A program made the position numbers and the translations under genes. This document shows, piece by piece, positions 49,616-64,000 of a stretch of DNA of 64,000 nucleotides. The notes under the pieces were generated by a model. It did no database searches, was not told the DNA's origin, and was given only the letters and a program-made list of their open reading frames with translations. The DNA comes from Negativicutes bacterium (GTDB taxonomy: Bacteria > Bacillota > Negativicutes > UBA1444). The stretch covers positions 32,001 to 96,000 of the forward strand of contig CAXXIN010000013.1 of the NCBI GenBank assembly GCA_963665275.2, written 5' to 3'. How positions within the stretch are numbered: the stretch's first letter is position 1; each line of letters opens with the position of its first letter.

Positions 49616-52600
49616 TCAATTTCGCGCAGTTTTTATCACCAGCGCGCGAATCTCGGCTGCGAGCTCAGGCGTCAGCTCCGTACCGTTTAGTCGCCAGGAC
49701 CAGTTTCCTGCCGCGGTGCCCGGCAGGTTCATTCTCGCCTCTGTATCGAGACCCAGCCAGTCCTGCGCCGGAATCATGGCCACTCGGGCTACACTGGACA
49801 TCACGCGCTCCACGAGTGCCCTGACCAGCTCCTGCAAAGGGATATCGGGCGAAGCCTGGGCGTAGGCCAAAGCGCCGGCATACAGTTCAGGCTGTTTCAC
49901 CTGCGCGAATTTCAGCCAGCCCAATAGCGTATCATTGTCATGTGTGCCGGTATAGTAGAATGTGTTCGGTTGAGGGTTCGGCAGATGATAGCCCTTCCCG
50001 TCCGGATCGGGCCAAATCAGAAAAGGCATGATCGCCATGCCCGGCAGGAAGAACGATTCCTTCAATTTCACGACTTCCGGCGTTATAACGCCGAGGTCTT
50101 CCGCCAATATCGGAATTTCACCCAACTGGCGCAGCAGCGCGTTGAAAAAATGTGCAGCCGGCCCCTTGACCCATTTGCCGCGAATCGCAGTTTTGGCGCG
50201 GGTCGGAATTTCCCAGAACGCTTCGAACCCCCGGAAATGGTCGATGCGAATTGCATCTACAGACCGGAACAGCCACTGCAAGCGACGTATCCACCATGAA
50301 TAGTCATCTGCGGCATGCTGGGTCCAATCATAATGAGGATTGCCCCAACGCTGACCAGTCCGGCTGAAATAGTCAGGCGGTACTCCCGCACAGGTCTTGG
50401 GGCGTCCGTGTTTATCAAGCGAGCAAAGTTGTGGAAACGCCCAGACATCGGCGCTGTCATGCGCAATAAAAATTGGCAGGTCGCCGACAATTTTTATGCC
50501 TTTGGCCGTTGCATGGCGATGCAACTTGTCCCACTGGCTGAAGAATATGTACTGCACGAAACGGTGAAAGCCGATTTCCGTCTCCAGCTTGGCCTTATAT
50601 CGCTGCAGGGCTTCCGGTTCTCTATGCGCCACGCCTGCATCCCATTCCGTCCAGGCCGCTCCTGCATGGAAATCTTTCAACGCCCTGAACCAAACGTAGT
50701 CCTCTATCCAGGCGGCAGCATTCCTACAGAAGTCCAGGTAATCCTCCGGTTCCGGCTGCTGGCGGAAATTGGTGTAAGCAACTCGCAGCAAGGTATTTTT
50801 CCACGCAGACACTTTTTCATATTCCACTTTCCCGTCGCAAAGTCCTGCCGGGGGCAAAAGCTCTTGCAGCAGTCCGCGCGCGAGCAGATCCTCCGGTGAT
50901 ATCAGAAGCGGGTTGCCGGCAAAAGCCGAGGCGCTCTGATAAGGCGATCCGGTAGAGTCGACCGGCGTCAGGGGAAGAACCTGCCAGAGAGTTTGACCGG
51001 CTGCCGCCAGCCAATCGACAAAAGTATGGGCAGCTGGACCGAGATCGCCGATCCCATAAGGGCCCGGCAACGATGTCGGATGCAGCAAAATACCTGAGTG
51101 TCTGGCAGAAAACAACGGGTGCACCGCCGCCTTCAGCAGGATCGCCGACAGCGGCGGCAGGGTGATCGACAACAGCCCTTTCTCATCCGGCAGATAAAGG
51201 GCGTTTTCCTGCCCGAGGATTTCGCGAAGCGGTCCGAAACAGACCGAAGAAATGTCGACGACCCACTCGACAACAGCCTCGCTTCGATTGACAAAAACCA
51301 AAGCGGCTGCATCCGGCATCACCGACCCCAGCACATCACGACCCTCGTCCGTTCGTCGACCGAAGGCAAAGATATCAGCTCCGGCCGAAAGTGGAACCCA
51401 GCGCCCTGTGCGCAGCACTGCCTCGGAGCGGCGAATCGTTGCCAAACGCTGGTACCATTCCACCAGTTCCGCTTCCTCGTTCCCCCATGGATAGGTCCGA
51501 CGGTTCTGCGGATCACTGTGCCCTTCCAGGCCGGCTTCGTCGCCATAATAGATACAGGGCACGCCCGGTGAGGCAAACTGGATCAGCGCCGCCAGTTTCA
51601 GCCGTTCCACCGCCACGCGGCGCGCGGCGGCAGGCAGATGATAACGCGCCTGTTCCAGCTTCGTCAATTGATTTTCCGGCGCCGCGCCGCCAAGAAGCGT
51701 CAGCGCCCGCGGCACATCATGCGACCCAAGTACGTTCATGGTCGCATAAAAATAGGGCGCCGGATAGTTTTCACTCAGGCTGATCAACCGGCGCATGGAG
51801 GCATCCGCATCGCAATGTCCGGTGAAAAAGTCGATCACCGCCGATCGGAACGGATAATTGATGACTGAATCCAGTTCCCGACCCAAGAGATACTCTCGCA
51901 GAATTCCATAGCTTTCCTTGCGTGAAGCATCTTCCCACACTTCTCCGATCAGTACGGCCTCCGGATCTGTCGCTTTAAGTTCGCGGTACATCTCTTGCAC
52001 GAACTCTCCCGGCAGTTCATCTACGACATCCAGCCGCCAGCCGGCAGCGCCCCTTTTCAACCAGTGTTTGATCACGCTGTCCGGTCCGCTGATAATGAAG
52101 TCGCGGTAGGAAGGTTCCATTTCATTGACATTCGGCAGGGTAGTCACCCCCCACCAGCAATCGTACTTGTCCGGATACTCAGTAAACCGGTACCAAGGGT
52201 AGGAAGGAGAATCTTTGGACCGCAACGCAGCTTGAAAATAAGGACTGTCAGAACCGGTATGACTGAACACGCCGTCCAGAATCAGATGGATCCCGGCAGC
52301 GCTTGCTGCGGCCTGTAGCCGGGCGAAGGCCTCGTCTCCGCCGAACTGCGCGTCCACTTTTTTGTAATCGCCTGTATCGTATTTATGGTTGGATACCGAT
52401 TCGAAAATCGGATTCATGTAGAGAATCGTCACGCCCAGACTCTTCAAGTATGAAAGTTTGTCGGTAACGCCGTCCAGTGTGCCGCCAAAAAAATCATACG
52501 CGGCAATATCCCCCGTTTGCGGGTCCTTGGCATAAAACGGGGAATCATTCCAGTGAGGATGATATAGCCCTCCAGCGGGCAGTTCCGGCAGCGGGGATGG

Positions 52601-53059
52601 TTGGTCACCCCGATAAAAACGGTCGGGAAAAATCTGGTACATGATCCCATTCGTGTACCACTCCGGAACCTTAGCCTTCACGTCATACACCGTAATCTGC
52701 CAATCAGCCTCCGGCACGGCTCCGAATTCGACGCCTTCTCCGCCCATCCCGTCGCCCGGTGCACCGTATCCAAAGGAACGGTCTTCACACCTGATCTGAA
52801 AATGATACCAGAGCAACCCTGGCTCCGGCGGCGCACTTATCTGGAACCGGAAGCGGAAGCAAACCGGCGTCTCCTCAACGGTGAAGGGTTCGAGAATCAA
52901 TTCCCCGGTTGCCTTGGACCACATCCTCAGGTTGACGGATTGCGGCATGCCAACTGTACTAGCATCAATATAAAGATTGACCGTCGTTCCGCATGGAACA
53001 GCTCCGAACGGACGACGGTACTGGCTATCATGGGAGTCATGGTAAAAGGAACAACTCAT
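49616..53059 (-). CDS. malQ: Bifunctional GH13 (neo/amylopullulanase-like) - GH77 4-alpha-glucanotransferase fusion
   Basis: GH13 motifs YQIFPDRF, DGVFSH, GWRLDV, GEVW and GSHD; GH77 motifs GILLHPTSLP, RIDHFRG, AEDLG, GTHDN and MNLPG. Confidence 0.92.
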   Translation of the reverse strand: MSCSFYHDSHDSQYRRPFGAVPCGTTVNLYIDASTVGMPQSVNLRMWSKATGELILEPFTVEETPVCFRFRFQISAPPEPGLLWYHFQIRCEDRSFGYGAPGDGMGGEGVEFGAVPEADWQITVYDVKAKVPEWYTNGIMYQIFPDRFYRGDQPSPLPELPAGGLYHPHWNDSPFYAKDPQTGDIAAYDFFGGTLDGVTDKLSYLKSLGVTILYMNPIFESVSNHKYDTGDYKKVDAQFGGDEAFARLQAAASAAGIHLILDGVFSHTGSDSPYFQAALRSKDSPSYPWYRFTEYPDKYDCWWGVTTLPNVNEMEPSYRDFIISGPDSVIKHWLKRGAAGWRLDVVDELPGEFVQEMYRELKATDPEAVLIGEVWEDASRKESYGILREYLLGRELDSVINYPFRSAVIDFFTGHCDADASMRRLISLSENYPAPYFYATMNVLGSHDVPRALTLLGGAAPENQLTKLEQARYHLPAAARRVAVERLKLAALIQFASPGVPCIYYGDEAGLEGHSDPQNRRTYPWGNEEAELVEWYQRLATIRRSEAVLRTGRWVPLSAGADIFAFGRRTDEGRDVLGSVMPDAAALVFVNRSEAVVEWVVDISSVCFGPLREILGQENALYLPDEKGLLSITLPPLSAILLKAAVHPLFSARHSGILLHPTSLPGPYGIGDLGPAAHTFVDWLAAAGQTLWQVLPLTPVDSTGSPYQSASAFAGNPLLISPEDLLARGLLQELLPPAGLCDGKVEYEKVSAWKNTLLRVAYTNFRQQPEPEDYLDFCRNAAAWIEDYVWFRALKDFHAGAAWTEWDAGVAHREPEALQRYKAKLETEIGFHRFVQYIFFSQWDKLHRHATAKGIKIVGDLPIFIAHDSADVWAFPQLCSLDKHGRPKTCAGVPPDYFSRTGQRWGNPHYDWTQHAADDYSWWIRRLQWLFRSVDAIRIDHFRGFEAFWEIPTRAKTAIRGKWVKGPAAHFFNALLRQLGEIPILAEDLGVITPEVVKLKESFFLPGMAIMPFLIWPDPDGKGYHLPNPQPNTFYYTGTHDNDTLLGWLKFAQVKQPELYAGALAYAQASPDIPLQELVRALVERVMSSVARVAMIPAQDWLGLDTEARMNLPGTAAGNWSWRLNGTELTPELAAEIRALVIKTARN

Positions 53060-53084: not shown

Positions 53085-54110
53085 TTATATCATTTTATTC
53101 AGATCACGATTTCCGCCTAATCTCCATAAGCTTATTTTATAAATGCCCCGTTCTTTTGCTAGGCTGCTCCAATAATTCAGGGTCTTTACATCAGCATACC
53201 ACACTTGGTAATGAACCCCGTCATTTTCATATTCAAAAAACTGACTCTGGCTGTCTTTATCCCGTTGCGGCACGGCATCATAGGTCGCAGACAGCACTTG
53301 CGCTTCCGCTTCCGTCACCAGTTGCTTTTTCCCATTGGATCCCCATACACAGCCACCTGTCGCAAATGCAACCGATTTTTCTCCCGGCAGGCTGTCCATT
53401 TGGGTCAAGAGAGTTTGAATGAAAGTTTTATTCGCTTTGGGGCCTGGACCACTATGCATCCCATACAGGTTATAAAACATGACAATATACTCCGGTCCAT
53501 TGGCAAACGCCGTTGAGGCAAACGGAGTATTCGGCTCCAAAACAACCCTAACTTTCAAATTTTTGTTCCGGGCACGTGGATATAGTTTATTGACAAACCG
53601 CAAAAAAAGTTGCCCTACGGGTTCATCCTTCCATACTCTCTCATAATCAATTTCCAATCCATCATAGCCGCCTTCCAGGGTCAAGGCGATGATGTCATCG
53701 ATATGTTTATCCATGGAAGCCTCATTCGACAGCAGTCGGCGCAGGACTTCCGTATCCTTGAGCACAACGGTTCCATCGATAACCTTCTTGTCATTGACAA
53801 ACGAAAGATAAGTTTCATAGGGCATTTTCTTACGTTTATGCTCGCTTTTTATCTCGCGAATCGCCGCCGGTATGAATAGTCGATCCAATTCGTCATAATA
53901 GGCGCCGAAATAAACAAGTTTCCCGGCCTTGTTGCCCATTTTGACCAAATCTTTGCCGCCCGCGTCCAAATCCCAATAAGCCAACCAGACCGATCTATTG
54001 ATATCCTCTTTCTCCATGGATTTGGCGATCAGGTGATTGCTTTGCGAGCACCCTGCCAAAACAAGAAAAACGACCAGCAACATAACAGCTTTACCCAATT
54101 TATGCTTCAC
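53085..54110 (-). CDS. GH18-like glycoside hydrolase lipoprotein
   Basis: Lipobox LAGC; YDGLEIDYE (variant of DxxDxDxE); MFYN, VWYAD and SLWRLG. Confidence 0.8.
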   Translation of the reverse strand: MKHKLGKAVMLLVVFLVLAGCSQSNHLIAKSMEKEDINRSVWLAYWDLDAGGKDLVKMGNKAGKLVYFGAYYDELDRLFIPAAIREIKSEHKRKKMPYETYLSFVNDKKVIDGTVVLKDTEVLRRLLSNEASMDKHIDDIIALTLEGGYDGLEIDYERVWKDEPVGQLFLRFVNKLYPRARNKNLKVRVVLEPNTPFASTAFANGPEYIVMFYNLYGMHSGPGPKANKTFIQTLLTQMDSLPGEKSVAFATGGCVWGSNGKKQLVTEAEAQVLSATYDAVPQRDKDSQSQFFEYENDGVHYQVWYADVKTLNYWSSLAKERGIYKISLWRLGGNRDLNKMI

Positions 54111-54129
54111 ACAAAGCCTCCCACGGCAA

Positions 54130-55998
54130 TTACAAGTTAACGATGAACCAGTTGATCAGAGTTTCCCACCACTGTTTCAGGTTATATTTTACAGCGTCCC
54201 ATCCTTGCAGTTTTCCATCGAACAGAACGCGTTCCTTCTCTGCTCCCGTGTTCTCAGTAATAACCAGTTTTTCGAATACACCATCATAAACATCATCCGC
54301 TAAGTTTCTTTGGCTCCAGCCGGATGCTTTCCAGCCTGATTCCAAATAAACCTTGCCGCCCTGCAAAACAGTAACCGCTACATCTTGAACGGCACTCTTG
54401 CCATCCACCATCACACTCAGTTTATCACCTTTGAGTGAAATCGTCAGCATGCGGTCGCCTTTAGCGTGAACACTAATTGTCGGTATGTATTCCGGAGCAC
54501 CTTCGGCAACACTAGGAACTTTCTCCAATTCCTTGTTTTTAAGTCGTTCAGCATAAATCTTCGCTTTTTCCGCCGATGTCGCATACCTTACGAAAGTTTC
54601 CAGTTCGCGTATTTCGGCGGCTTTCTTGTCTTCAGGAATCGATATGGGAGCCTTGCCATCGTGTTTATCCAAATTCAACTTGTGCAATACTTTTTCGGCG
54701 CCGCCGGTTCTTTCCCGCACATATAAAAAGTTGTCGGTGATGTCCACAGACAGATATCGGTTTAAGCTATTATCGGCCCTGAGATAAATACCCTGAGTCC
54801 CCACTTTATTTCCCTTGAGGTGTACCGAGACTTTCGCGTCCGCGAAGTCGGCATTGTTTCGCAAGCGAACCAAGCCGTTATCTTTGGGCAAACAAGTTAA
54901 AATCATCGTTTCGTTTTGGATCTCAAAAGCGCCTTTCAACGTATCCCAGGCTTGCTGACGCGATAAATCGCCACGAACAAATTCCATTTTTTGAAGGTTG
55001 TCATATTTGATGCGCATCAGCAAATGGTTGGTATACCAATAAGCTTGCGGCTGCATCCTAGTCAAATCATACGGACTGCTGTTTTTGACATTGAAAGAAA
55101 AGCCTTCCCTGTTAAAGTTGAGCTTGAATAGTTCTTTGATCCACTGCTCGTTCACGGCGCTCACTTTGTCGTTATTCCCGAAACTGCCGGTATTGGAATG
55201 CATTAAAATATAAAGTTTGGGTACATAACCAATCGCACTATTATATTGTTTTCGCAGCGTATCATAATCATACGAAATACGATCTTTCATTTTTTCATAG
55301 CTTTCTTTGGGAACGAAGTACTCATCGCGAACATAATCCATCAAATAATGATTGTATTTCCGGCCCAAATACGACATCACGCTGCTATGTTCCAACGGTT
55401 CCAATTCGCCCAAATAATTGTCGTAGCGATCAAAAACATTGATAAACGCCAGTCGGTAACCATTGGTTCCCATTTCCCAATAAGTAGTTCTTTCAAGGTC
55501 GACTAACTCTTCCGGCATTAAAAATTTAGTATCTTTTTTTTCAAACTTTTCCGGGTAAGTCAGCATGGTTGCCTTAAAATTCAAGTCTTCCAATATTTTT
55601 TGCGAAAAGATTGCCGTATCCCGGCGCCCATCCTCAAACATCAAAAATAGTGATTTTTCGGGAAGTATTTTGCCCGTTTGGTAATAATTGATAACATCTT
55701 GCTGCGTTATTGTCACATAGCCCTGATCTTTCAGCGCCTGCAAATGTTCTTGCAACCGTCCCACGCCTATGAGATTTTGATCGCCGATACGTTCCACACC
55801 AAAATAAGAAAGCGCAACGAACCCCCTGTCGCCTGCGAACCGGGTATTGGCTCGAGACACCGGTTCATAGGCGGTTAAGGTGACAATAGAGACGACAATG
55901 ATGGCCAACAATACGAGCAGTATCAGGCCTTGGAAAACACCACGGATAATTTTGTTTCTATTTTTGCGGCTTGTGTATTTTTCATCGTATGTCTTCAT
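54130..55998 (-). CDS. Membrane-anchored IcaB/PgaB-like (degenerate CE4) polysaccharide-modifying protein with C-terminal beta-rich domain
   Basis: One N-terminal TM; HLQALKDQGYVTI...LPEKSLFLMFEDG...KATM matches the IcaB/PgaB pattern; metal His site reads EMGTNGY. Confidence 0.7.
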   Translation of the reverse strand: MKTYDEKYTSRKNRNKIIRGVFQGLILLVLLAIIVVSIVTLTAYEPVSRANTRFAGDRGFVALSYFGVERIGDQNLIGVGRLQEHLQALKDQGYVTITQQDVINYYQTGKILPEKSLFLMFEDGRRDTAIFSQKILEDLNFKATMLTYPEKFEKKDTKFLMPEELVDLERTTYWEMGTNGYRLAFINVFDRYDNYLGELEPLEHSSVMSYLGRKYNHYLMDYVRDEYFVPKESYEKMKDRISYDYDTLRKQYNSAIGYVPKLYILMHSNTGSFGNNDKVSAVNEQWIKELFKLNFNREGFSFNVKNSSPYDLTRMQPQAYWYTNHLLMRIKYDNLQKMEFVRGDLSRQQAWDTLKGAFEIQNETMILTCLPKDNGLVRLRNNADFADAKVSVHLKGNKVGTQGIYLRADNSLNRYLSVDITDNFLYVRERTGGAEKVLHKLNLDKHDGKAPISIPEDKKAAEIRELETFVRYATSAEKAKIYAERLKNKELEKVPSVAEGAPEYIPTISVHAKGDRMLTISLKGDKLSVMVDGKSAVQDVAVTVLQGGKVYLESGWKASGWSQRNLADDVYDGVFEKLVITENTGAEKERVLFDGKLQGWDAVKYNLKQWWETLINWFIVNL

Positions 55999-56001
55999 GA
56001 T

Positions 56002-57840
56002 CTACGCCTTTGCCTGTTTTACTGCAGGCTTTTTCAGCATTGAAGCAAGGTCGGCAGGTGTCATGCGGGTGCCCCAGGTTGTCTTCCAGAAAGTTACCCA
56101 GGCAATGGGCATCTGCCAGAGCAATATGACCTCATAATATAAACAAAACCAGAGACCAAAACTCCAGGTCGAGCTTTTTCTGAGAAACAATTGCGCCATA
56201 CTCATCAGCAAGGCCATTAATACAAGACCAAAAAGGAAGGTCATCGGCCAAACCCGATGGACGATCGGAATATAGATCAGATTGTATAGCACGACCACCG
56301 GCGCCAGTATCGGTATCAGCAGGCCCATATAGAACGAAAGGGCCATAAAAGGTTCCTTCCTCCACATAAATCGAGCTGCAATCAAAGACTCTCTCAACCA
56401 TGAACGTTTCCAGCGCATTTGCTGTTTCAAAAAAACACTATGAGTACTGGGCACAATCGTGGCGCATATTGCAGTATCTTGATAACAAGTACGGTTGTGG
56501 CGCAAGATGAAGTTCGTCATGCTGCGGTCATCGCCGAAGGTGGCTCTTTCACCCAAAAACTTTTGATTTCGCCAGTCTTCCAGATACTTCAAAATCAAGT
56601 CTTTGCGGTAACAGGCCAGCGGCCCGGATAAACAGGTCACTGCATCAAAGTAACTTTCGGCGGCCTTCATGATACGAAATGCAATATAATAGCGTACGGA
56701 CTGCATTTTCGTCAACGCGCTGGAAAAAGTATTGGCAACATCGGTTCTGCCGGACACCCCACCCATTTCTTCATCCTTGAAGGGCTGAACAAGATTGCGA
56801 ATCGCAAAAGGATCCAAAAAACTGTCGGAGTCAACAAACACCATCAGCTCATGCTTGGCCATTAAAGAGCCTACCGCCATCGCTTCGCGTTTCCCGGCAT
56901 TTTTTGCTTGCCGGATATAACGAATCCGGTTTTGGGTATCATAACGGCTTTCTTTTATTTTCAGTTCATCAACAATTTCTTTAATTCTTTCAAATGAGTT
57001 GTCATTGGAGCAATCATCAACAACGATGACTTCCAATTTATCCAGCGGATAATCTTGGTTAATGCAGCCTAAAATCGTTCTTTGAATCATCTGTTCTTCG
57101 TCAAAGCAAGGAATAACAATGGAAACCCCCGGCGTAAAGTCGGGATCAATTGGGACTGGACGATAAAACATCGCAACGAAATATCGACTCAACAAAAAGG
57201 TAGCCGCAATAATACTATACAGGTACAGGTATTTATTAAATTTGAAGTAAAGAATACTTTCGACCCGCATCAACATAACGCAGGCTACGATTACGAACAA
57301 GAAAAATGAAGCCGCCGATATCATATACCAGTTTTTTTTCTTGGAGGCATATTGCGCAATCGTCTCGGAAAATTGAACGGCGCATTGGACTTTCCCGTTG
57401 TTTGCGTTGCCAAGCCGCATTATTTTCGCTGCAATATTGACACTCATCTCATAACCTTCCGGCATTGTACCGGGAACTATGGTAAATTTAAGCCGGACTT
57501 GTTCCCCTGGTTGCATGTCTTTGGCGTCTTCCTGGGATATTTCCAACAACATTCCTGTCGTAGATATGTCGATACTTTTCCCGCCACAGCTACTATTTCT
57601 AAAGGCAGAAGCATAGTGGACCGCGACATCATAATTAACCAAATAACGCCGTCCGCCTTTTTCATTTTCAATAAGCGCCGCAACATCACTTGATTGTTCA
57701 TTACTTATAGCCTGACGTCGGTCAGTATTGCTCCGCACATTTTCTTTATCCGGCACTTTGGAAAGCAGCCTGCGATCGGGTTTCCCTACCGGCAACACCT
57801 CGGAAATATCTTTAAGTACTGGTTGAAAAAACTGATCCAC
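56002..57840 (-). CDS. GT2 hyaluronan-synthase/NodC-like processive synthase with N-terminal PilZ-like domain
   Basis: VDDCS, GKREAM, FVDSD, TCLSGPLACYR, FGDDRSMTN, QQMRWKRS and WGTR; N-terminus has RRYL...DISTTG. Confidence 0.88.
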   Translation of the reverse strand: MDQFFQPVLKDISEVLPVGKPDRRLLSKVPDKENVRSNTDRRQAISNEQSSDVAALIENEKGGRRYLVNYDVAVHYASAFRNSSCGGKSIDISTTGMLLEISQEDAKDMQPGEQVRLKFTIVPGTMPEGYEMSVNIAAKIMRLGNANNGKVQCAVQFSETIAQYASKKKNWYMISAASFFLFVIVACVMLMRVESILYFKFNKYLYLYSIIAATFLLSRYFVAMFYRPVPIDPDFTPGVSIVIPCFDEEQMIQRTILGCINQDYPLDKLEVIVVDDCSNDNSFERIKEIVDELKIKESRYDTQNRIRYIRQAKNAGKREAMAVGSLMAKHELMVFVDSDSFLDPFAIRNLVQPFKDEEMGGVSGRTDVANTFSSALTKMQSVRYYIAFRIMKAAESYFDAVTCLSGPLACYRKDLILKYLEDWRNQKFLGERATFGDDRSMTNFILRHNRTCYQDTAICATIVPSTHSVFLKQQMRWKRSWLRESLIAARFMWRKEPFMALSFYMGLLIPILAPVVVLYNLIYIPIVHRVWPMTFLFGLVLMALLMSMAQLFLRKSSTWSFGLWFCLYYEVILLWQMPIAWVTFWKTTWGTRMTPADLASMLKKPAVKQAKA

Positions 57841-57873
57841 ATGCCGCCCCCCTCTCCGTCATCGATAAGAAAT

Positions 57874-60504
57874 TTATCTTCCGCTATTATGTTGAGTTGT
57901 CAATTCCAATGATTTTTTACGATCGATTTGGGAATATCCCTGAATTAAATAATCCGACAATTGCCCGATTCTAAACTTGGTTGGATCCGAATCCCGTTTG
58001 TTTTCGTTGGCTGTCAACAATAGATCCAAAGCTACGGCAGTATAGATGGACGTATCCGACATGTGCATAACCAGGATCGCCCCTTTATTCACCTCACCGT
58101 TTTCAGTGTAAATCCCTTCCTTGAAGCGTTTTACAAGCTCGGCAACACTTTTCGCATCATAATCATGCGTACTATAAGAGCCTTGGACAATGAATTCAAA
58201 ACCAGCTTTGAAAACCGAGTCCACTCCATCTTTATTGATTGCCAGCTGTGGCGGTCGAAAGAAACGCGTCAATGAGTATTTACCGTTAACTGCCACGTCG
58301 CCTACCACGTCACGGAGTTTATGAAAGGAAGCTATCAGTTCCTGAACATATTCATCCCTGTTGTCCTGTGTTTTCACCTGTTTGCCGAGATTGGGATCCC
58401 GGACTGCCATGGGTTTGTGCTGATCCGAATGGTTGCCGATCTCATGTCCCTCCAACGCCATGGTCCTCAGTAGGTTGGGATTGTTCAGGACGGTTCTCGT
58501 GAGAATAAAGAACGTACCGAATACGTTATGCTTCCTGAGGACATAAAGCAGCTTGTTGATGGAAGCATCGGTTCCCCAGTCGTCAAAGGTCAGGAAAATG
58601 ACATTATCGCTAGCATGAACCAGTCCGCTCTTATCAAGGCGACGGGTTTCCATTTTAGAAAAATCGATGATTCGATCTTCGTCATTAACATCTATGTTCC
58701 CGATATAACGCTGGGACAGTTTGGTCACGAGACTTTTGTTTTCGCCTTCGAAAGCCGGAGTATCTTTCAGCAGCTGTGGCGGAACGTTCTTTAGGTCAAC
58801 GGGATAACGATAAAGAAATTTTTTGTTGCTGAGAAGGGTCCCCACAGGTTTGATCGTGTAACGGGAGTTATTGGACTTGTTATTTTCAGGGTTGTCATAA
58901 AACGTTGAATACGCGATATTATCAATTTTTTTGAGCTTGATAAGCTCTATTAAATTACCAACCAGCAAATTGTTGGTGTAATAATCCATCCGAAAATGCA
59001 CAATTTGGCCGCGGGCCAAAGAAAATAGGGACTTGGGAAAGATTTCATCAGCGACTTGGTCTGCTGTTGCATAATCTTTATGCTTGGTTTGAACCACGGT
59101 TACAGATTGCCCAATCATCACGCAACCCTGCGAGGAAACCGCCTGCATCGTCGCATCGGCAATCGCTCCGCCGGGCTGTTTCACCAGGTTGGTTTTGACT
59201 CCATATTGCGATTGCAGAACTTTGCGGCCAGAGAGTATCCGTTTTTCGACCTGATCCTGCGTTTCGCCCTCTTTAGGCCGTATCGCCAATCCAACTTCGT
59301 GCCCGCCTGCCAAGATCTGGCGAACAAGCTTCGGATACTGCTGCAATTCCAATTCTGTTACGAAGAACGTTCCAGCAACCTCCAATTGTTTCAAGCGATT
59401 CAGAACATCATTCACTACCGGTTCATTTGATAGTCCCGAAAACGAATAGGCTAATGCCGGTTCGGTTGTATAAATCATTTTGACTTCTTTATCAGGAAGG
59501 CCGATAATTTCCGCTGCGTATACTTTGCGAAGTGTAAACAAGCTCACTAACTCTTCATGGATAAAGTCAATCGCCTTGCCCACCGACCAACTTCCAGCCT
59601 TTGTTGTTGGGAATGAATCGACATAGACCGTCGCTATTTTCTCCTGAGCAAGTGCATTCAGCAGTTTTTCCACAGTCGCGACGATATCTTTTTCGCCCAC
59701 ATCCACAGGCTGCGCCAATACTTTCAAACCTGGCTGCTTGTCAATAGCCGGTTTTAAGTCGATTTTTCCTTTTTCATCGACAATCAGATCTGGATTAGGC
59801 TTCAATTTCACAGAGACAATACTGCCCGGGCGAATCTTATTGACGAAGCTTCGCGCCGCTTGGTCAGAATTCACATTTTTTGCGGTTACAAAAGTATCGC
59901 TCTTCACGACACTCTTGAAGCCGCAGGCTTTGGCCGCCTGCAATACTGGGTCTGTATATTTCGTATCGTTGGCTTTCAACAGATTAGGGCCATTATCCGA
60001 GGTCACCTTGATGATTTTTTGCGAGCGGCAAAAATCCTTTACCAAGCGTTCCGTCGGTAGCGTCTCCATTTTTGTCAACCCAATGAGGGTATAGTTTTCA
60101 ATCTTGTGGCCCGCTTTTCTGATATTCACAACGGTTTGAGGATCTTCAGCCGTTTGAATCCCATCAACAAAAAACGTAGCTTTGGCTTTATATTTGTCCA
60201 ATAAATCCAAAATTCTCTGCATCACGGCGCGATCCGTCAGTCCGTCGAACGTTAGAGCGATCTGGCGCTGATTGTCTGTGGCGCCGGTCGTAATCATTGC
60301 TTTCTCCGGATTCTTCTTCATGCGGTCCATCGCAGCAGCGATTTCGGCATCCGCATTATAGGCACTGCTCAAATCGGTTATATTTCGATATCCCCCGCCG
60401 GTCTGTTGCGTGAAATAACTTTTAAAGAAAAATACCCAACTCAAAGCCGCTACGATGAGCAGCACAACAAGCAACGAAATCACTTTTCCTCTCAAGCATA
60501 TCAC
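57874..60504 (-). CDS. Polysaccharide deacetylase with three tandem NodB/CE4 domains
   Basis: N-terminal TM; domain 1 LTFDGL/GHKIENYT; domain 2 YSFSGL/GHEVGLA; domain 3 LTFDDWG/GHEIGNHSDQH/FRPP/LVMH. Confidence 0.88.
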   Translation of the reverse strand: MICLRGKVISLLVVLLIVAALSWVFFFKSYFTQQTGGGYRNITDLSSAYNADAEIAAAMDRMKKNPEKAMITTGATDNQRQIALTFDGLTDRAVMQRILDLLDKYKAKATFFVDGIQTAEDPQTVVNIRKAGHKIENYTLIGLTKMETLPTERLVKDFCRSQKIIKVTSDNGPNLLKANDTKYTDPVLQAAKACGFKSVVKSDTFVTAKNVNSDQAARSFVNKIRPGSIVSVKLKPNPDLIVDEKGKIDLKPAIDKQPGLKVLAQPVDVGEKDIVATVEKLLNALAQEKIATVYVDSFPTTKAGSWSVGKAIDFIHEELVSLFTLRKVYAAEIIGLPDKEVKMIYTTEPALAYSFSGLSNEPVVNDVLNRLKQLEVAGTFFVTELELQQYPKLVRQILAGGHEVGLAIRPKEGETQDQVEKRILSGRKVLQSQYGVKTNLVKQPGGAIADATMQAVSSQGCVMIGQSVTVVQTKHKDYATADQVADEIFPKSLFSLARGQIVHFRMDYYTNNLLVGNLIELIKLKKIDNIAYSTFYDNPENNKSNNSRYTIKPVGTLLSNKKFLYRYPVDLKNVPPQLLKDTPAFEGENKSLVTKLSQRYIGNIDVNDEDRIIDFSKMETRRLDKSGLVHASDNVIFLTFDDWGTDASINKLLYVLRKHNVFGTFFILTRTVLNNPNLLRTMALEGHEIGNHSDQHKPMAVRDPNLGKQVKTQDNRDEYVQELIASFHKLRDVVGDVAVNGKYSLTRFFRPPQLAINKDGVDSVFKAGFEFIVQGSYSTHDYDAKSVAELVKRFKEGIYTENGEVNKGAILVMHMSDTSIYTAVALDLLLTANENKRDSDPTKFRIGQLSDYLIQGYSQIDRKKSLELTTQHNSGR

Positions 60505-60513
60505 CCCTTACAA

Positions 60514-61844
60514 TTATAGGCTCCAGTAAGAATATCCATGGTCTTCCATTGTTTGCTGGTCAAAGATATTCTTAACGTCGATAAGTACGGGTTGAGTGCT
60601 GCCGTCCTGCGGTTTAAACATCCGATCCAAATCTGCCAGCTGCAGCTCGGCAAACTGGCGATGCGCAACTAGAAACACCAAACAATCGGCGTTCACCACT
60701 TCGTGCAAGTCCACCAGCTCCGCATTCAATTCGGTGTGAAGCTCGTCGGCATCGATGAAAGGATCCGCAACTTTCACACGAAGGCCAAATGAACTGAGAT
60801 GCTTGAAAACATCTACCGCTTTGGAATTGCGCATATCGGGGACGTTTTCTTTGAATGTCAGTCCTAATATATATATATTGGCTTTACTGACATGCAGGCC
60901 CGCCAGAATCATCTTCTTGATGACTCTGTCCGCAACATAAAAGCCCATATCATCATTAATTTTACGGCCGGCTGCGATGATCTGCGAATGATATCCCAGT
61001 TTTTCAGCCTGATAGATGAAATAATAAGGATCAACGCCGATGCAGTGCCCGCCGACCAGCCCCGGATAGAACCCCAACGCATTCCATTTGGTGTTCATGG
61101 CTTCAATCACATCCAGGGTCTTTAGCCCCATCCGATCAAACACCATCGCCAATTCGTTCATAAATGCGATGTTAATATCGCGTTGGGCATTTTCAACCAG
61201 CTTAGCCGCTTCAGCCACCTTAATACTAGTGGCTTTGAAGATTCCCGCTGTAATGATTAATTCATAAATAGCAGCAATATCATTGCAGGTTTGTTCATCC
61301 ATCCCCGATACAATTTTTCGGATGTTTTCCAGCCTGTGAACTTTATCGCCGGGATTAATCCGCTCCGGCGAATAGCCAATTTTGAAGTCCTCACCACAGA
61401 CTAATTTCGACTTATTCTCCAGTATCGGAGCGCAAACTTCCTCGGTAACCCCGGATATACTGTCGATTCGAAGACAACGATGCAACCCGGGGATAGATTG
61501 GCCCCGACCATTTCACAAGCACTGATTACCGGCGCCAGATTCGGAGTTTTGTCTCCATTAACAGGCGTTGGTACAGCTACAATAATCACTTTGGCTTCTT
61601 TTAACCTGGCTGGATCTGTCGTAAACTCCAGCGTTGTTTGCTGCACTTTTTCATTACCGATTTCATTCGTCGGATCAACACCGTGCAAATACAGTTCAAT
61701 CTTTTCATGATTGACATCAAAACCAATGGTTTTTACTTTCTCAGCAAAGGCTACAGCCAGCGGCAATCCGACATAGCCTAGCCCGACCACCGCTAAATAT
61801 TCATGCCCATCCCGAACTCCAGCAAAGGTATTGACCATTTCCAT
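60514..61844 (-). pseudogene. UDP-N-acetylhexosamine 6-dehydrogenase (TviB/WbpO/CapL-like) split by a 1-nt deletion in a G run (real or sequencing error)
   Basis: GLGYVGLP and ESTVYPG in the 5' frame; VTEE, SPERINPGDK, GGHCIGVDPYY and FKENVPD in the 3' frame; adding one G at 61449-61452 gives 443 aa. Confidence 0.88.
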
Positions 61845-63730
61845 TAGAAAAAGGCTGTCAAGGAGCCCCACCAGGTTGATCCCGGCTCTCCTGTCGTTAT
61901 TTCATGCAAATTATAATATTCCAGTCCGCCAACCAGATTTTCCGCCAATGTGTAATAAATTCCAATACCCAGTCCCCTATAACCCTGCATCCACCCGCCT
62001 CTGCCATTCATACTCGGCGAAATGTAAGTATATCGCGGTTGCGAGTAATATCTGGCAAAAATGCCATAAGTCCCCGGTCTCCAGGTTTTTAACTGGCCAT
62101 AATTCAAACCAAACACATAACCAAAATTATTGCCCTGGCTATCTTTCTGGCTTGCAAGCAAAATCATCGAACCCAGGCTGAAATTGCTGAATTTGTATTC
62201 TCCGGCCAAATTCACAATTGTATTCTGTTTCTGAAGCTCCTCATTCATCTTATAGTTATAGACACCAGCTTCCAGATTATAATCCAAAGCTTCCTGCCGC
62301 GCAGTGGCGATAAAGCTCTGTGTCGTATAATCGGTGTTCCCAAAAGCAAACGTATACTTTACAGGTCCACCAAAAGTAACCCTGCCGCCTACGAACGTGC
62401 TATCATAAATATTTCCGTCGGCCATAAAATAACCAAACGACCCTGCCTGAATAGTTCCCCCTTTAATATTTCCCGTCGTACTTAAACGAAAGGTAACTGC
62501 GTCATTATAATTCAGAAAACTCTTTTCTCCTTCAAGCATCCCATTAAAACGCCAATCCTTATTAACCCATACTTCGGCTCCAACGCGGGCGCGAAGGCCG
62601 GATGTATTCTGTCCCCAGCTTTGGTACCCTTGATTGACAGCGTAATGATACCGAATGTTTCCATCGATCTTCACTTTGTTGATCGGACTCTTTTTCGCGT
62701 CTCCCACGGTCATCAAATCGTTCATGATACCTGAATAAGTGTCTGGGGTAAGGGCTTTGGGCGCACGTGCTGCAGGCGGGCTTGCCGCATAAGCATTCGG
62801 CGGCGCAGCCGGCTTAGTTGTGCCTTGCGGCGCTGCGGATTCTTTGGGTCCGGCGACATTTGTCTGACTCGGCAAGCTTGTCGCGCCACCGGTCGCTTGT
62901 CGGGTCGCGTTGACGTGGTTAACATCAACCGTGTCCATATACTTGGTCGTCAGTTTGGCAAGATCGTTTGAAAAATCAGCTTTGGCCTTTTCAATGTTCA
63001 ACTTCGGATTGCTATATATCCTACTTTTGATTTGCGCCATGTCATTGCCGAAAGCAGATCTCTGGTCTGGCAACAAAGTTGGGCTAAGGTTGGCAACGGT
63101 TTGATCAACTTCGCTATCAACAGTGACCTTGAATTTTATAACATTATTATTAGGTAAAGCCCCAATCTTCTCAGCAAGCTGTCTCATTTCAGCAGCAAAA
63201 TCAGCTTTTGCTTGCTGAGGCGTGGCTTGAACTGGAGCAGCTTTTTCGCTTGTCACCTTAGTAGCTCCGGCGCTGATCGCTGAATTTGGAGTTTTATTTT
63301 GACCTTTATCTGGAACTGTATTTTTCGCAACTACAACCTCACGCGATTCCACTTTGGGCATAAAAGCCGATGTGATTTGCGCAACATCATAAGAAAAGTC
63401 CGCTTTGGATTTTTCAATGTTCAATTTGGGATCGGCGTATATTTTATTTTTGATCCGCGTCATTTCGTTAGCAAAAATAGGGCGTTGGTCCGGCGGCAGG
63501 GTTGGGTTGAGTTTGGCAACCGTTTGATCAACTTCACTATCAAGCGTAACCTTAAATCTAATGACATTATTATTGGGCAACGCAACAATCTTCGACGTCA
63601 GTTGCGCCATTTCGTAGGCGAAATCCGCTTTATCCTGCGCATGAGCCGTCTGAATAAAAAAACCTTCAATCGATAGTCCGATTATACTTAGCATGAAAAA
63701 CAGTACTATGAGCTTTTTCCCCAACCGCAT
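61844..63730 (-). CDS. Exported protein: tandem 91-aa helical repeats, Pro/Ala/Thr linker and probable outer-membrane beta-barrel
   Basis: Signal peptide ending AHA-Q; aromatic/Gly-rich amphipathic strands from VKIDGNIRYHY; terminal Phe (WGSLTAFF). Confidence 0.72.
   Translation of the reverse strand: MRLGKKLIVLFFMLSIIGLSIEGFFIQTAHAQDKADFAYEMAQLTSKIVALPNNNVIRFKVTLDSEVDQTVAKLNPTLPPDQRPIFANEMTRIKNKIYADPKLNIEKSKADFSYDVAQITSAFMPKVESREVVVAKNTVPDKGQNKTPNSAISAGATKVTSEKAAPVQATPQQAKADFAAEMRQLAEKIGALPNNNVIKFKVTVDSEVDQTVANLSPTLLPDQRSAFGNDMAQIKSRIYSNPKLNIEKAKADFSNDLAKLTTKYMDTVDVNHVNATRQATGGATSLPSQTNVAGPKESAAPQGTTKPAAPPNAYAASPPAARAPKALTPDTYSGIMNDLMTVGDAKKSPINKVKIDGNIRYHYAVNQGYQSWGQNTSGLRARVGAEVWVNKDWRFNGMLEGEKSFLNYNDAVTFRLSTTGNIKGGTIQAGSFGYFMADGNIYDSTFVGGRVTFGGPVKYTFAFGNTDYTTQSFIATARQEALDYNLEAGVYNYKMNEELQKQNTIVNLAGEYKFSNFSLGSMILLASQKDSQGNNFGYVFGLNYGQLKTWRPGTYGIFARYYSQPRYTYISPSMNGRGGWMQGYRGLGIGIYYTLAENLVGGLEYYNLHEITTGEPGSTWWGSLTAFF
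62936..63631 (-). repeat. Intragenic duplication, two 273-nt units (63359-63631 and 62936-63208)
   Basis: KADFAYEMAQLTSKIVALPNNNVIRFKVTLDSEVDQTVA... versus KADFAAEMRQLAEKIGALPNNNVIKFKVTVDSEVDQTVA... Confidence 0.92.
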
Positions 63731-63813
63731 CGTTCGCACCGCCACCTTAATTTTACGTTAGTCATTTTGTTTTCGAATAATCGATATTCACAGCCCTGCA
63801 AAGGCTCTCATTT

Positions 63814-63999
63814 TTACCGGGTACCAGAAATGAATAGGTTTCGTCTGATAATCTTCCCTGCGTTGGCAGATTTATTGGGAATAGGTGTATTCACCGCTTC
63901 CGCAACGTCATCTGGTGACGCCATTTGGGCGGGAGTCACAATCACTTCATCAGGGATTGCCTCCGAAATGTCTGCGCATGCGTCTTTGGCGGTATCCCT
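63814..63999 (-). CDS. Probable 3' end of a gene starting beyond the window
   Basis: Open frame RDTAKDACADISEAIPDEVIVTP...RRNLFISGTR-stop at 63814; no recognisable motif. Confidence 0.4.
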   Translation of the reverse strand, partial: RDTAKDACADISEAIPDEVIVTPAQMASPDDVAEAVNTPIPNKSANAGKIIRRNLFISGTR

Positions 64000-64000
64000 C

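Follow-up and report, generated by a model that had tools for sequence, protein, structure and literature searches.

The window analyzed here, a stretch of 64,000 nucleotides from a Negativicutes bacterium (GenBank assembly GCA_963665275.2, contig CAXXIN010000013.1, positions 32,001 to 96,000 of the forward strand), carries a cluster of six genes that is real and strongly conserved in Negativicutes and in some clostridia. According to the open reading frame (ORF) calls, the six genes lie on the minus strand between positions 53085 and 63745, and the sequences of their products suggest that the cluster most likely makes and exports an N-acetylglucosamine (GlcNAc)-based surface polymer when cyclic di-GMP (c-di-GMP) is present. 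We assign a probability of about 0.6 to the full reading, in which the operon would be a c-di-GMP-gated, synthase-dependent secretion system for an extracellular GlcNAc-based polymer, working in six steps and with N-acetylglucosaminuronic acid (GlcNAcA) as a probable constituent.

Organization of the gene cluster

From upstream to downstream, the cluster encodes an outer-membrane (OM) protein, a UDP-N-acetylhexosamine (UDP-HexNAc) 6-dehydrogenase, a triple-CE4 protein, a glycosyltransferase of the GT2 family fused to a PilZ domain, a protein designated here as P6, and a GH18 lipoprotein. The initial annotation described six tightly packed co-directional genes with gaps of 0 to 33 nt, and both the coordinates and the successive intergenic distances (about -1 or an overlap, 9, 33, 3, and 19 nt) agree with it. 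The extent proposed at that time was 53085 to 63730; the six genes reach 63745, and the cluster may continue past this point into a BcsB-like gene described below.

Regarding the individual parts, the predicted OM barrel is recovered as a 16-strand barrel in the structure model, Veillonella OmpM1 being its closest structure; the dehydrogenase shows the three UDPG_MGDP_dh domains and, among NCBIfam models, matches TviB best; the PilZ-GT2 assignment agrees with Pfam matches to GT2, Chitin_synth_2, and PilZ, and its likeness to hyaluronan synthases (HAS) with the finding that class I HAS enzymes are the closest solved structures; and the GH18 lipoprotein has the lipobox LAGC together with an orthologue profile that matches GH18 structures (E 7.7e-20). 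Two other assignments were right in part. The triple-CE4 protein does have three domains, with catalytic motifs only in the third, and the protein described as IcaB-like has the PgaB/IcaB fold but lacks the aligned catalytic and metal His of PgaB. The overall logic of a synthase accompanied by modifiers, a hydrolase, and an OM pore holds.

The G+C content is 41 to 47% in the cluster, 54 to 62% in the 9 kb downstream, and 50.1% in the genome. The promoter and terminator scans gave counts not above those of shuffled sequences (21 versus 18.9 and 18 versus 12.8, respectively); therefore, the boundaries of the operon cannot be drawn from them. P6 and the OM protein have no significant Pfam family, and look-ups in the ESM Atlas returned leads named just "hypothetical protein" and "porin".

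Conservation of a four-gene core

A scan of one genome per species confirmed 173 relatives and returned 80 loci. According to tblastn with the window proteins, the genes are co-conserved across these loci, this being the test that the initial annotation had set for its own proposal. The CE4 protein and P6 are found at all 80 loci, and GH18 at 70 of them, nine of the misses corresponding to contigs that end early and one (L082) to a real absence. The order CE4-GT2-P6-GH18 on one strand is kept in 64 of the 70 loci holding all four core genes, the best CE4 match being located after GH18 in the other six, and this gene arrangement is far beyond chance. The porin gene is present at 31 of the 80 loci and the dehydrogenase gene at 41, being 30 of the 31 loci with the porin and 11 of the 49 without it. 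Because CE4, P6, and GH18 accompany the GT2 almost always, whereas the porin and the dehydrogenase do so in part of the loci, the conserved core consists of the four genes CE4-GT2-P6-GH18, which are also found in monoderm clostridia, and the porin is a diderm add-on. The system first proposed with six genes thus retains its core, the conserved unit being smaller and occurring also in clostridia that have a single membrane and no porin.

A phylogeny of 75 GT2 proteins (FastTree, midpoint root; six loci were excluded because the ORF fell outside 590 to 700 aa or was not called) separates a 43-tip clade with 0 porins from a 32-tip clade with 27 (support 1.0). Of the porin loci, 29 are labelled as Negativicutes taxa, one as "Bacillota bacterium", and one as Acholeplasmataceae; in the tree, this last locus adjoins one from Acidaminococcaceae, which makes mis-binning probable. 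At E ≤ 1e-100, the GT2 is detected in 88 of 401 sampled Negativicutes genomes, corresponding to 42 of 110 genera. Within the genus of the present genome, 3 of 11 other genomes have it. For the class of a Clostridium carrier, the same threshold gives 2 of 399 scored genomes, one of them being the centre genome itself.

The full block of six genes is also present in Sporomusa ovata (L017) and Pelosinus fermentans (L010). Some variations of the cluster were also observed. The clusters on contigs of metagenome-assembled genomes (MAGs) labelled as Acholeplasmataceae and Bacteroides (L052, L046, and L057) are placed by the GT2 tree within Acidaminococcaceae and Lachnospiraceae, which probably reflects binning errors rather than transfers. 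A Bacillota MAG (L074) has two tandem copies of CE4-GT2-P6, and two genomes of the same genus as the present one have a second CE4 gene before the triple-CE4 gene (L083:10483-11313 and L084:1-2343). Also, in an "uncultured Pelosinus", a second member of the porin family with 753 aa and TPR repeats is encoded just downstream of the cluster (L022:14989-17247); a CE4 protein of 620 aa and a GT2 of 418 aa come after it, and the three may form a second related system.

A synthase related to class I hyaluronan synthases

The GT2 gene (56002-57840) encodes a predicted processive glycosyltransferase of 612 aa that, on sequence comparison, is closest to the class I HAS enzymes among solved structures. 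The single sequence matches Xenopus HAS1 (PDB code: 8smm) with E 5.3e-38 and the Chlorella virus HAS (PDB codes: 7sp6/7sp7) with E 7.5e-30. With a profile of 38 family members, HAS1 is matched with E 3.4e-46 and 161 bits, versus 29.3 bits (E 3.1e-6) for BcsA and 15.8 bits (E 0.038) for the oomycete chitin synthase (PDB code: 7wjm). Moreover, SGPL, GDDR, QQMRW, and the C-terminal WGTR are invariant across the 38 sequences, which reproduces the class I HAS motifs (GDDR, QxxRW, SGPL, and WGT[RS]), and the alignment to HAS extends through the C-terminal membrane helices. None of the curated models for other synthases reaches its cut-off on the protein, the scores being 178.1 bits for NodC (TIGR04242, cut-off 550), 114.6 bits for PgaC/IcaA (TIGR03937, cut-off 422.3), and 41.2 bits for CelA/BcsA (TIGR03030, cut-off 699.1). 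The companion of the synthase is a point in which it departs from HAS systems, because instead of a UDP-glucose dehydrogenase it has an enzyme that fits a UDP-GlcNAc 6-dehydrogenase better. For ten distant GT2 relatives, the names of cluster members are just automatic labels ("hyaluronan synthase" or "glycosyltransferase").

The dehydrogenase gene and the nature of the polymer

In the window, the dehydrogenase gene (60514-61871, with a likely ATG start at 61844) is read as two overlapping ORFs, 61401-61871 and 60514-61485, which jointly cover the three UDPG_MGDP_dh domains. The frame changes by -1 where the coding strand has four consecutive G, which corresponds to CCCC on the plus strand at 61448-61452. 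A comparison with public data over 60900-62000, using the Logan contigs of runs X1, X3, and X5, places one extra C behind 61448 in X1 (depth 39.8), X3 (depth 10.1), and three contigs of X5, the X1 and X3 contigs having no further difference over 1101 bases. X1 or X3 may be the source of the present assembly, although they are still independent assemblies of the reads. Because these read-based contigs carry the missing base, the split is an assembly error and the gene is intact in the organism. In line with this, the dehydrogenase is a single ORF of about 440 aa in all 30 porin-bearing relatives that have the gene. Further homopolymer indels may exist in the assembly.

The two pieces in the window score 311.6 and 104.1 bits on the TviB model. 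Intact orthologues reach 428.3 and 468.6 bits on this UDP-GlcNAc 6-dehydrogenase model (NF011729), below its cut-off of 592, compared with 204 to 248 bits on the UDP-ManNAc dehydrogenase model and about 131 to 161 bits on the UDP-glucose dehydrogenase models, and they pass the subfamily model TIGR03026 (cut-off 189.8). On these scores, the enzyme is classified as a UDP-HexNAc 6-dehydrogenase of the TviB/WbpO group, as a member of the group and not as an equivalog. Its absence from 39 of the 80 loci implies that it is not essential to the polymer of the family, unless it is encoded elsewhere in those genomes. The dehydrogenase is accessory to the system, and the uronic acid announced by the initial annotation is plausible for the product of the present locus while it does not define the system.

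This distribution bears on an alternative in which the same machine makes a plain β-1,4-GlcNAc homopolymer similar to chitin or chitosan, the dehydrogenase serving another glycan or an optional decoration. We consider this a serious possibility, although less probable than the main reading. It would account for the fact that the GT2 is 60 to 73% identical throughout the relatives, yet the dehydrogenase is missing at those 39 core loci; moreover, GH18 and CE4 are the classic chitin-active families, the Chitin_synth_2 and NodC models both match the GT2, and class I HAS enzymes given UDP-GlcNAc alone make chito-oligosaccharides. Nonetheless, in 30 of the 31 porin loci the dehydrogenase gene is placed between the porin and CE4 genes, following the logic of hasA-hasB, and the family profile favors HAS over chitin synthase by the scores given above.

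The PilZ domain and the proposed link to c-di-GMP

The N-terminal regulatory region of the synthase (residues 16-165; 57346-57795) is composed of an Arg-rich motif followed by a predicted PilZ β-barrel. The Pfam PilZ model (PF07238) gives 28.5 bits, above the gathering cut-off of 22.5, and the domain is detected at E ≤ 0.01 in 30 of the 38 family members. Residues 91-96 (DISTTG), with S93 and G96 invariant, fit [D/N]hSxxG, the PilZ motif as refined in bioRxiv 10.1101/814665. In total, D22, R23, R24, D31, R36, R41, R42, G63, R65, S93, and G96 are invariant in the region. R65 is the sole invariant Arg beside strand 1, and there is no canonically spaced RxxxR at that position. The invariant pattern DRR-x6-D-x4-R-x3-DRR (residues 22-42) is located 23 to 43 residues upstream of strand 1, behind a variable linker.

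At the genome level, 56 GGDEF matches are found versus 2 PilZ matches, one of which is the synthase. The other is a 101-aa ORF (C4:55382-55645) situated 2 kb from an Omp85 gene. Among the relatives, GGDEF genes occupy 7 of 136 immediate cluster flanks, all of them co-directional, versus 7 of 616 other non-core ORFs, a modest enrichment among genomes that are related and not independent. Since the PilZ domain retains [D/N]hSxxG but not a canonically spaced RxxxR, activation by c-di-GMP is inferred.

It could be argued that the PilZ-like domain no longer binds c-di-GMP, acting instead as a structural or protein-interaction module in a system controlled otherwise. Besides the missing RxxxR beside strand 1, this alternative would explain that the domain is weak or undetected in 8 of the 38 members at the threshold given above, that no solved PilZ structure is matched by the profile, and that neither a c-di-GMP riboswitch nor any other Rfam family was found (E ≤ 0.1) in the 18 kb that extend upstream from the OM gene. 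On the contrary, [D/N]hSxxG is kept, GGDEF genes are enriched at the cluster flanks, and R23, R24, R36, R41, R42, and R65 are invariant across both clades of the tree; these six Arg therefore point to a conserved anionic ligand. Taken together, the loss of c-di-GMP binding seems unlikely to us.

P6 and its predicted complex with the synthase

The gene of P6 (54130-55998; 622 aa) starts 3 nt after the stop codon of the GT2. The structure model (pLDDT 88.1 and pTM 0.85) presents a short cytoplasmic tail, one transmembrane helix, a PgaB/IcaB-like domain of CE4 fold, a ConA/CBM66-like β-sandwich, and a C-terminal helix. In Foldseek, the closest structures are the N-terminal domain of PgaB (PDB code: 3vus, TMt 0.74), IcaB (PDB code: 4wcj, 0.72), and CBM66 (PDB code: 4b1l, 0.76), the PgaB/IcaB/PplD fold ranging from 0.72 to 0.75. 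In deacetylases of the PgaB/IcaB type, catalysis depends on a catalytic Asp/His and an Asp-His-His metal site. The profile alignment of P6 to PgaB reads FEDG for FDDG and SYF for SWH, and no HxxxxH equivalent, that is, no metal His pair, is aligned, so P6 shares the fold of these enzymes and not their catalytic and metal residues. H267 and H325 are other invariant His of P6, which leaves room for an unusual site. Because the aligned catalytic and metal His of PgaB are absent, P6 looks less like a second deacetylase than like a pseudo-deacetylase that binds the synthase.

The prediction of the complex between residues 165-612 of the GT2 and residues 1-345 of P6, using our own alignments, supports that P6 binds the synthase. 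Three runs gave ipSAE values of 0.64, 0.64, and 0.65, versus 0.01 for the best of 3 controls; the mark applied is reached by 58 of 80 solved complexes and by 2 of 110 mismatched pairs, these counts being only a rough guide with our own alignments. The runs share at least 67% of the contacts, with a partner pLDDT of at least 78. In the predicted interface, residues 3-27 of P6 contact residues 354-358, 399, and 496-501 of the GT2, and several contacts fall on invariant residues, being F354, D356, E496, P497, and F498 in the GT2 and K16 in P6. We know of no solved complex of this kind.

The CE4 protein and the GH18 lipoprotein

The membrane-anchored triple-CE4 protein (57874-60504; 876 aa) has three Polysacc_deac_1 stretches (E 1.1e-54). 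The five CE4 motifs are TFDD, H[ST]xxH, RxPY, DxxD[WY], and LxH. The third domain (approximately residues 620-830; 58015-58647) keeps all five, with TFDD, HSxxH, RPP, and VMH conserved in 58 aligned sequences, and is a predicted active de-N-acetylase. Domain 1 reads TFDG, in which the Asp is not conserved, and lacks HSxxH, and domain 2 reads SFSG, the Asp pair and the His pair being lost in both across the same 58 sequences. From these motifs, domain 3 looks like the sole catalytic domain of the protein.

The GH18 lipoprotein (53085-54110; 341 aa) is a predicted hydrolase that would trim or release the polymer. As a single sequence, it scores 25.7 bits on Pfam GH18, below the cut-off of 29.6, while the profile of 32 orthologues matches B. 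subtilis YdhD (PDB code: 3cz8) at the E-value given above, and also GH18 enzymes of the YaaH/SleL type. The catalytic motif DxxDxDxE takes the form DGLEIDYE, in which Glu occupies the position of the middle Asp, whereas D155 and E157 are invariant. The N-terminal transmembrane helices of CE4 and P6, together with the lipobox of GH18, place all the modifiers outside the cytoplasmic membrane.

These two proteins are the origin of a further alternative, namely that the genes remodel a cell-wall or spore-associated glycan instead of making a biofilm polymer for secretion. Among named relatives, YdhD, YaaH, and SleL come closest to the GH18, the CE4 protein has the sporulation protein PdaB as its best NCBIfam match (214 bits versus a cut-off of 237), and many carriers are spore-formers. 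However, the cluster is also present in loci labelled Dialister, Megasphaera, Phascolarctobacterium, Pectinatus, and Selenomonadaceae, which we take to be non-sporulating, and a dedicated porin, a TPR-porin in Sporomusa, argues for export past the outer membrane, so a wall or spore role appears quite improbable. Even less credit can be given to a NodBC-like pathway to short, partly de-N-acetylated chito-oligosaccharide signals, which would follow from the matches of the NodC and NodB NCBIfam models (178 and 129 bits), since these scores are far below the cut-offs (550 and 240), the CE4 domains are extracytoplasmic behind a transmembrane anchor whereas NodB is cytoplasmic, the GT2 retains the C-terminal channel helices and the WGTR that align to HAS, and oligomers would hardly call for a hydrolase and a porin.

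The outer-membrane protein and diderm status

The OM protein (61844-63745; 633 aa) is predicted to have a signal peptide and two helical-bundle repeats, which a Pro/Ala-rich linker connects to a 16-strand β-barrel (residues 358-633; 61847-62674). In the model (pLDDT 73.8), the 16 strands lie between residues 358 and 632, and the linker is disordered. The best structure for the barrel in Foldseek is Veillonella OmpM1 (PDB code: 8bys, E 1.1e-15, TMt 0.77), and OmpF-type porins come next. The helical unit is single in most orthologues; in the present copy there are two, 69% identical to each other. Also, 7 of 32 orthologues are larger (1084 to 1136 aa), and in that of Sporomusa sp. KB1, the single one scanned, the extra 650 residues are TPR repeats, an architecture known from PgaA, BcsC, and PelB. 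A 16-strand barrel is encoded within the operon, TPR being found in the Sporomusa orthologues of about 1100 aa and absent here.

On sequence grounds, the diderm status of the organism is supported by a match to Omp85 (one gene, C4:52468-53172), an SLH-porin fragment (an SLH-domain ORF truncated where contig C18 begins), and the Negativicutes relatives. The description of the host as a diderm Firmicute agrees with these observations; LpxC, LpxB, and KdtA, however, were not found in the assembly, as detailed below. The usual Negativicutes outer-membrane gene cluster may fall in an assembly gap.

Proposed mechanism

According to the proposed mechanism, the membrane GT2 would polymerize UDP-sugars and push the chain through its own membrane channel, an activity expected from its homology to HAS. 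The N-terminal PilZ domain and the conserved Arg-rich extension would put the synthesis under c-di-GMP. As the complex prediction suggests, P6 would grip the synthase via its cytoplasmic tail and transmembrane helix, and its degenerate PgaB-like domain and lectin-like sandwich would receive or guide the chain outside the membrane. The third CE4 domain would then take off some of the N-acetyl groups, the two degenerate domains probably binding the polymer, and the GH18 lipoprotein would cut or free chains. Finally, in diderm hosts such as the present one, the OmpM-like 16-strand porin would carry the polymer over the outer membrane, a transport role suggested by the comparative pattern of porin occurrence. 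At the present locus, the TviB-type dehydrogenase would supply UDP-GlcNAcA, probably as the second substrate, by analogy with hasA-hasB. The outcome would be an acidic, partly de-N-acetylated GlcNAc/GlcNAcA polymer, this being the least secure step.

Several observations weigh against this mechanism. The loci without the dehydrogenase include that of Sporomusa acidovorans (L019), the PilZ domain does not have the canonically spaced RxxxR directly before its first strand, and the family profile matches no solved PilZ structure at E ≤ 1. The nearest named relatives of both GH18 and CE4 are spore-cortex enzymes (YdhD, YaaH/SleL, and PdaB). In the case of export, neither PgaA nor BcsC nor AlgE is among the 50 best Foldseek rows, the barrel being closest to general porins (OmpM1 and OmpF-type), the OM protein of the present genome has no TPR, and LpxC, LpxB, and KdtA were not found in the assembly, which is 92.6% complete.

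A bolder version of the mechanism, which we offer only tentatively, would see in the cluster an undescribed synthase-dependent family, ancient in Negativicutes, where a HAS homologue is gated by a fused atypical PilZ domain, has P6 as a pseudo-deacetylase co-subunit, and makes a zwitterionic, partly de-N-acetylated chain of alternating GlcNAc and GlcNAcA that an OmpM-derived porin exports.

Comparison with known systems

In its way of working, the cluster resembles the Pga, Bcs, and has systems, although the tests given here assign it to none of them. The likeness to class I HAS is given by the best PDB matches of the GT2 and by the motifs SGPL, GDDR, QxxRW, and WGT(R/S), common to both. Streptococcal hasB sits in an operon with hasA, and here a nucleotide-sugar 6-dehydrogenase is likewise encoded in the synthase operon. 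Unlike HAS systems, the present synthase has an N-terminal PilZ domain, the companion dehydrogenase is of the UDP-HexNAc (TviB) type and not a UDP-glucose enzyme, and the cluster includes the dedicated partners P6, CE4, GH18, and porin.

With PgaABCD and IcaADBC, the cluster shares a GT2, a CE4 de-N-acetylase, a small or single-pass partner of the synthase, and a porin exporter; moreover, the Sporomusa OM orthologues are TPR-porins like PgaA, and the first domain of P6 has the fold of PgaB/IcaB. PgaCD also depends on c-di-GMP, but in Pga the sensor is the PgaC-PgaD interface, whereas here it would be the fused PilZ domain. In addition, the hydrolase here is a GH18, the C-terminal domain of PgaB being a GH153, and P6 differs from PgaB in the aligned catalytic and metal His that it lacks. 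With BcsA-BcsB-BcsC, the common features are a PilZ domain fused to a processive GT2, a single-pass periplasmic partner at the synthase (predicted here), a 16-strand porin exporter, with TPR as in BcsC in the Sporomusa orthologues, and, in the present genus, a BcsB-like gene adjoining the cluster. However, the PilZ domain is N-terminal here and C-terminal in BcsA, BcsA structures give just 25 to 29 bits on the GT2, and conservation with the cluster does not extend to the BcsB-like gene (a match at 1 of 80 other loci).

Other c-di-GMP-controlled, synthase-dependent HexNAc polymers are those of Listeria Pss, B. subtilis YdaJKLMN, and E. coli NfrAB. Pss and YdaJKLMN belong to Firmicutes and combine a GT2 with BcsB-like and deacetylase-like proteins and a glycoside hydrolase. 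In these systems, c-di-GMP is sensed by a separate degenerate GGDEF protein (PssE and YdaK) or by an MshEN domain (NfrB), the hydrolase is a GH8, and the chains are ManNAc-based. The present cluster is set apart from the three of them by their general descriptions rather than by sequence comparison, and among the NCBIfam matches of the window proteins there is no model of Pss, YdaJKLMN, or NfrAB proteins. Regarding the exporter, OmpM1 is the best structural match of the barrel, also with 16 strands, but its N-terminal SLH domain tethers the outer membrane to the wall (the title of the entry names an attachment porin), while the OM protein of the cluster has helical-bundle repeats (TPR in Sporomusa) instead of SLH and is encoded inside a polysaccharide operon.

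The initial annotation knew of no system with this list of parts, and our literature searches agree with it: in full text, no description of a PilZ-fused HAS-like synthase or of the present gene set was found, nor a characterized operon that matches. Two PilZ surveys (bioRxiv 10.1101/814665 and 10.1101/2020.02.11.943704) do not mention an N-terminal PilZ on a HAS-like GT2 in the accessible part of their text, and their supplements may list such proteins. The bacterial chitin synthases of PMC5122149 were considered as a candidate for the GT2 family and rejected, because in the accessible portion of that article they are proteobacterial division-1 enzymes and the words Firmicutes and Clostridi are absent.

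Genomic surroundings

Upstream of the cluster, the window ends within the 3' end (63814-64000, minus strand) of a BcsB-like gene for a 975-aa protein, whose full extent corresponds to window-equivalent positions 63814-66741 (L002:1815-4742). The gene is co-directional with the cluster and ends 68 nt upstream of the porin gene. Its product matches Pfam BcsB with E 2.5e-13, in the N-terminal 135 residues only, and shows a signal peptide, an outside domain that spans about 640 aa, one transmembrane helix, and a cytoplasmic tail made of approximately six tandem repeats of about 36 aa (PLWETWIERDSAQEQSVSIPEELV...); no PDB sequence match was obtained at E ≤ 0.1. A homologue with 41% identity holds the same position in one genome of the same genus (L083). 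Outside the genus, this gene is not kept together with the cluster; it is therefore not counted as a part of the system, its membership being uncertain.

A paralogue of this protein, with 699 aa and without the tail, heads a polysaccharide cluster of the Wzx/Wzy type 27 kb further on. Together, the two polysaccharide clusters form a low-G+C stretch of about 42 kb, flanked on one side by glgC, a glgD-like gene, glgA, and glgP (window positions 49616-53059) and on the other by a gene for a 1147-aa fusion of a GH13 α-amylase and a GH77 4-α-glucanotransferase (G000:C13:127551-133659, equivalent to L088:13551-19659). The stretch looks like an island inserted into a glycogen locus. Within the Wzx/Wzy-type cluster, a 311-aa homologue of D-glucuronyl C5-epimerase (Pfam C5-epim_C, E 1.5e-41; L002:6915-7850, minus strand, equivalent to C13:100914-101849) adjoins a WecC-like UDP-ManNAc dehydrogenase (L002:5597-6886, minus strand, equivalent to C13:99596-100885), which hints at an epimerized uronic acid in a second polymer.

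Implications for Negativicutes

Among the targets of c-di-GMP, synthase-dependent exopolysaccharides such as cellulose, poly-N-acetylglucosamine (PNAG), Pel, and alginate are understood best, and they form the backbone of many biofilms. To our knowledge, almost nothing is known about the matrix polymers of Negativicutes, a class in which genera of the gut, mouth, and rumen stand alongside beer spoilers and the electrosynthesis model Sporomusa. Because 88 of 401 genomes and 42 of 110 genera carry the cluster, and since the synthase is one of 2 PilZ matches against 56 GGDEF matches in the present genome, the cluster is a prime candidate for making the main matrix polymer under c-di-GMP control in Negativicutes. 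It would also provide a relative of hyaluronan synthase that is bacterial and regulated and has a defined partner protein. Moreover, its diderm and monoderm versions constitute a natural pair that shows the part added for crossing the outer membrane.

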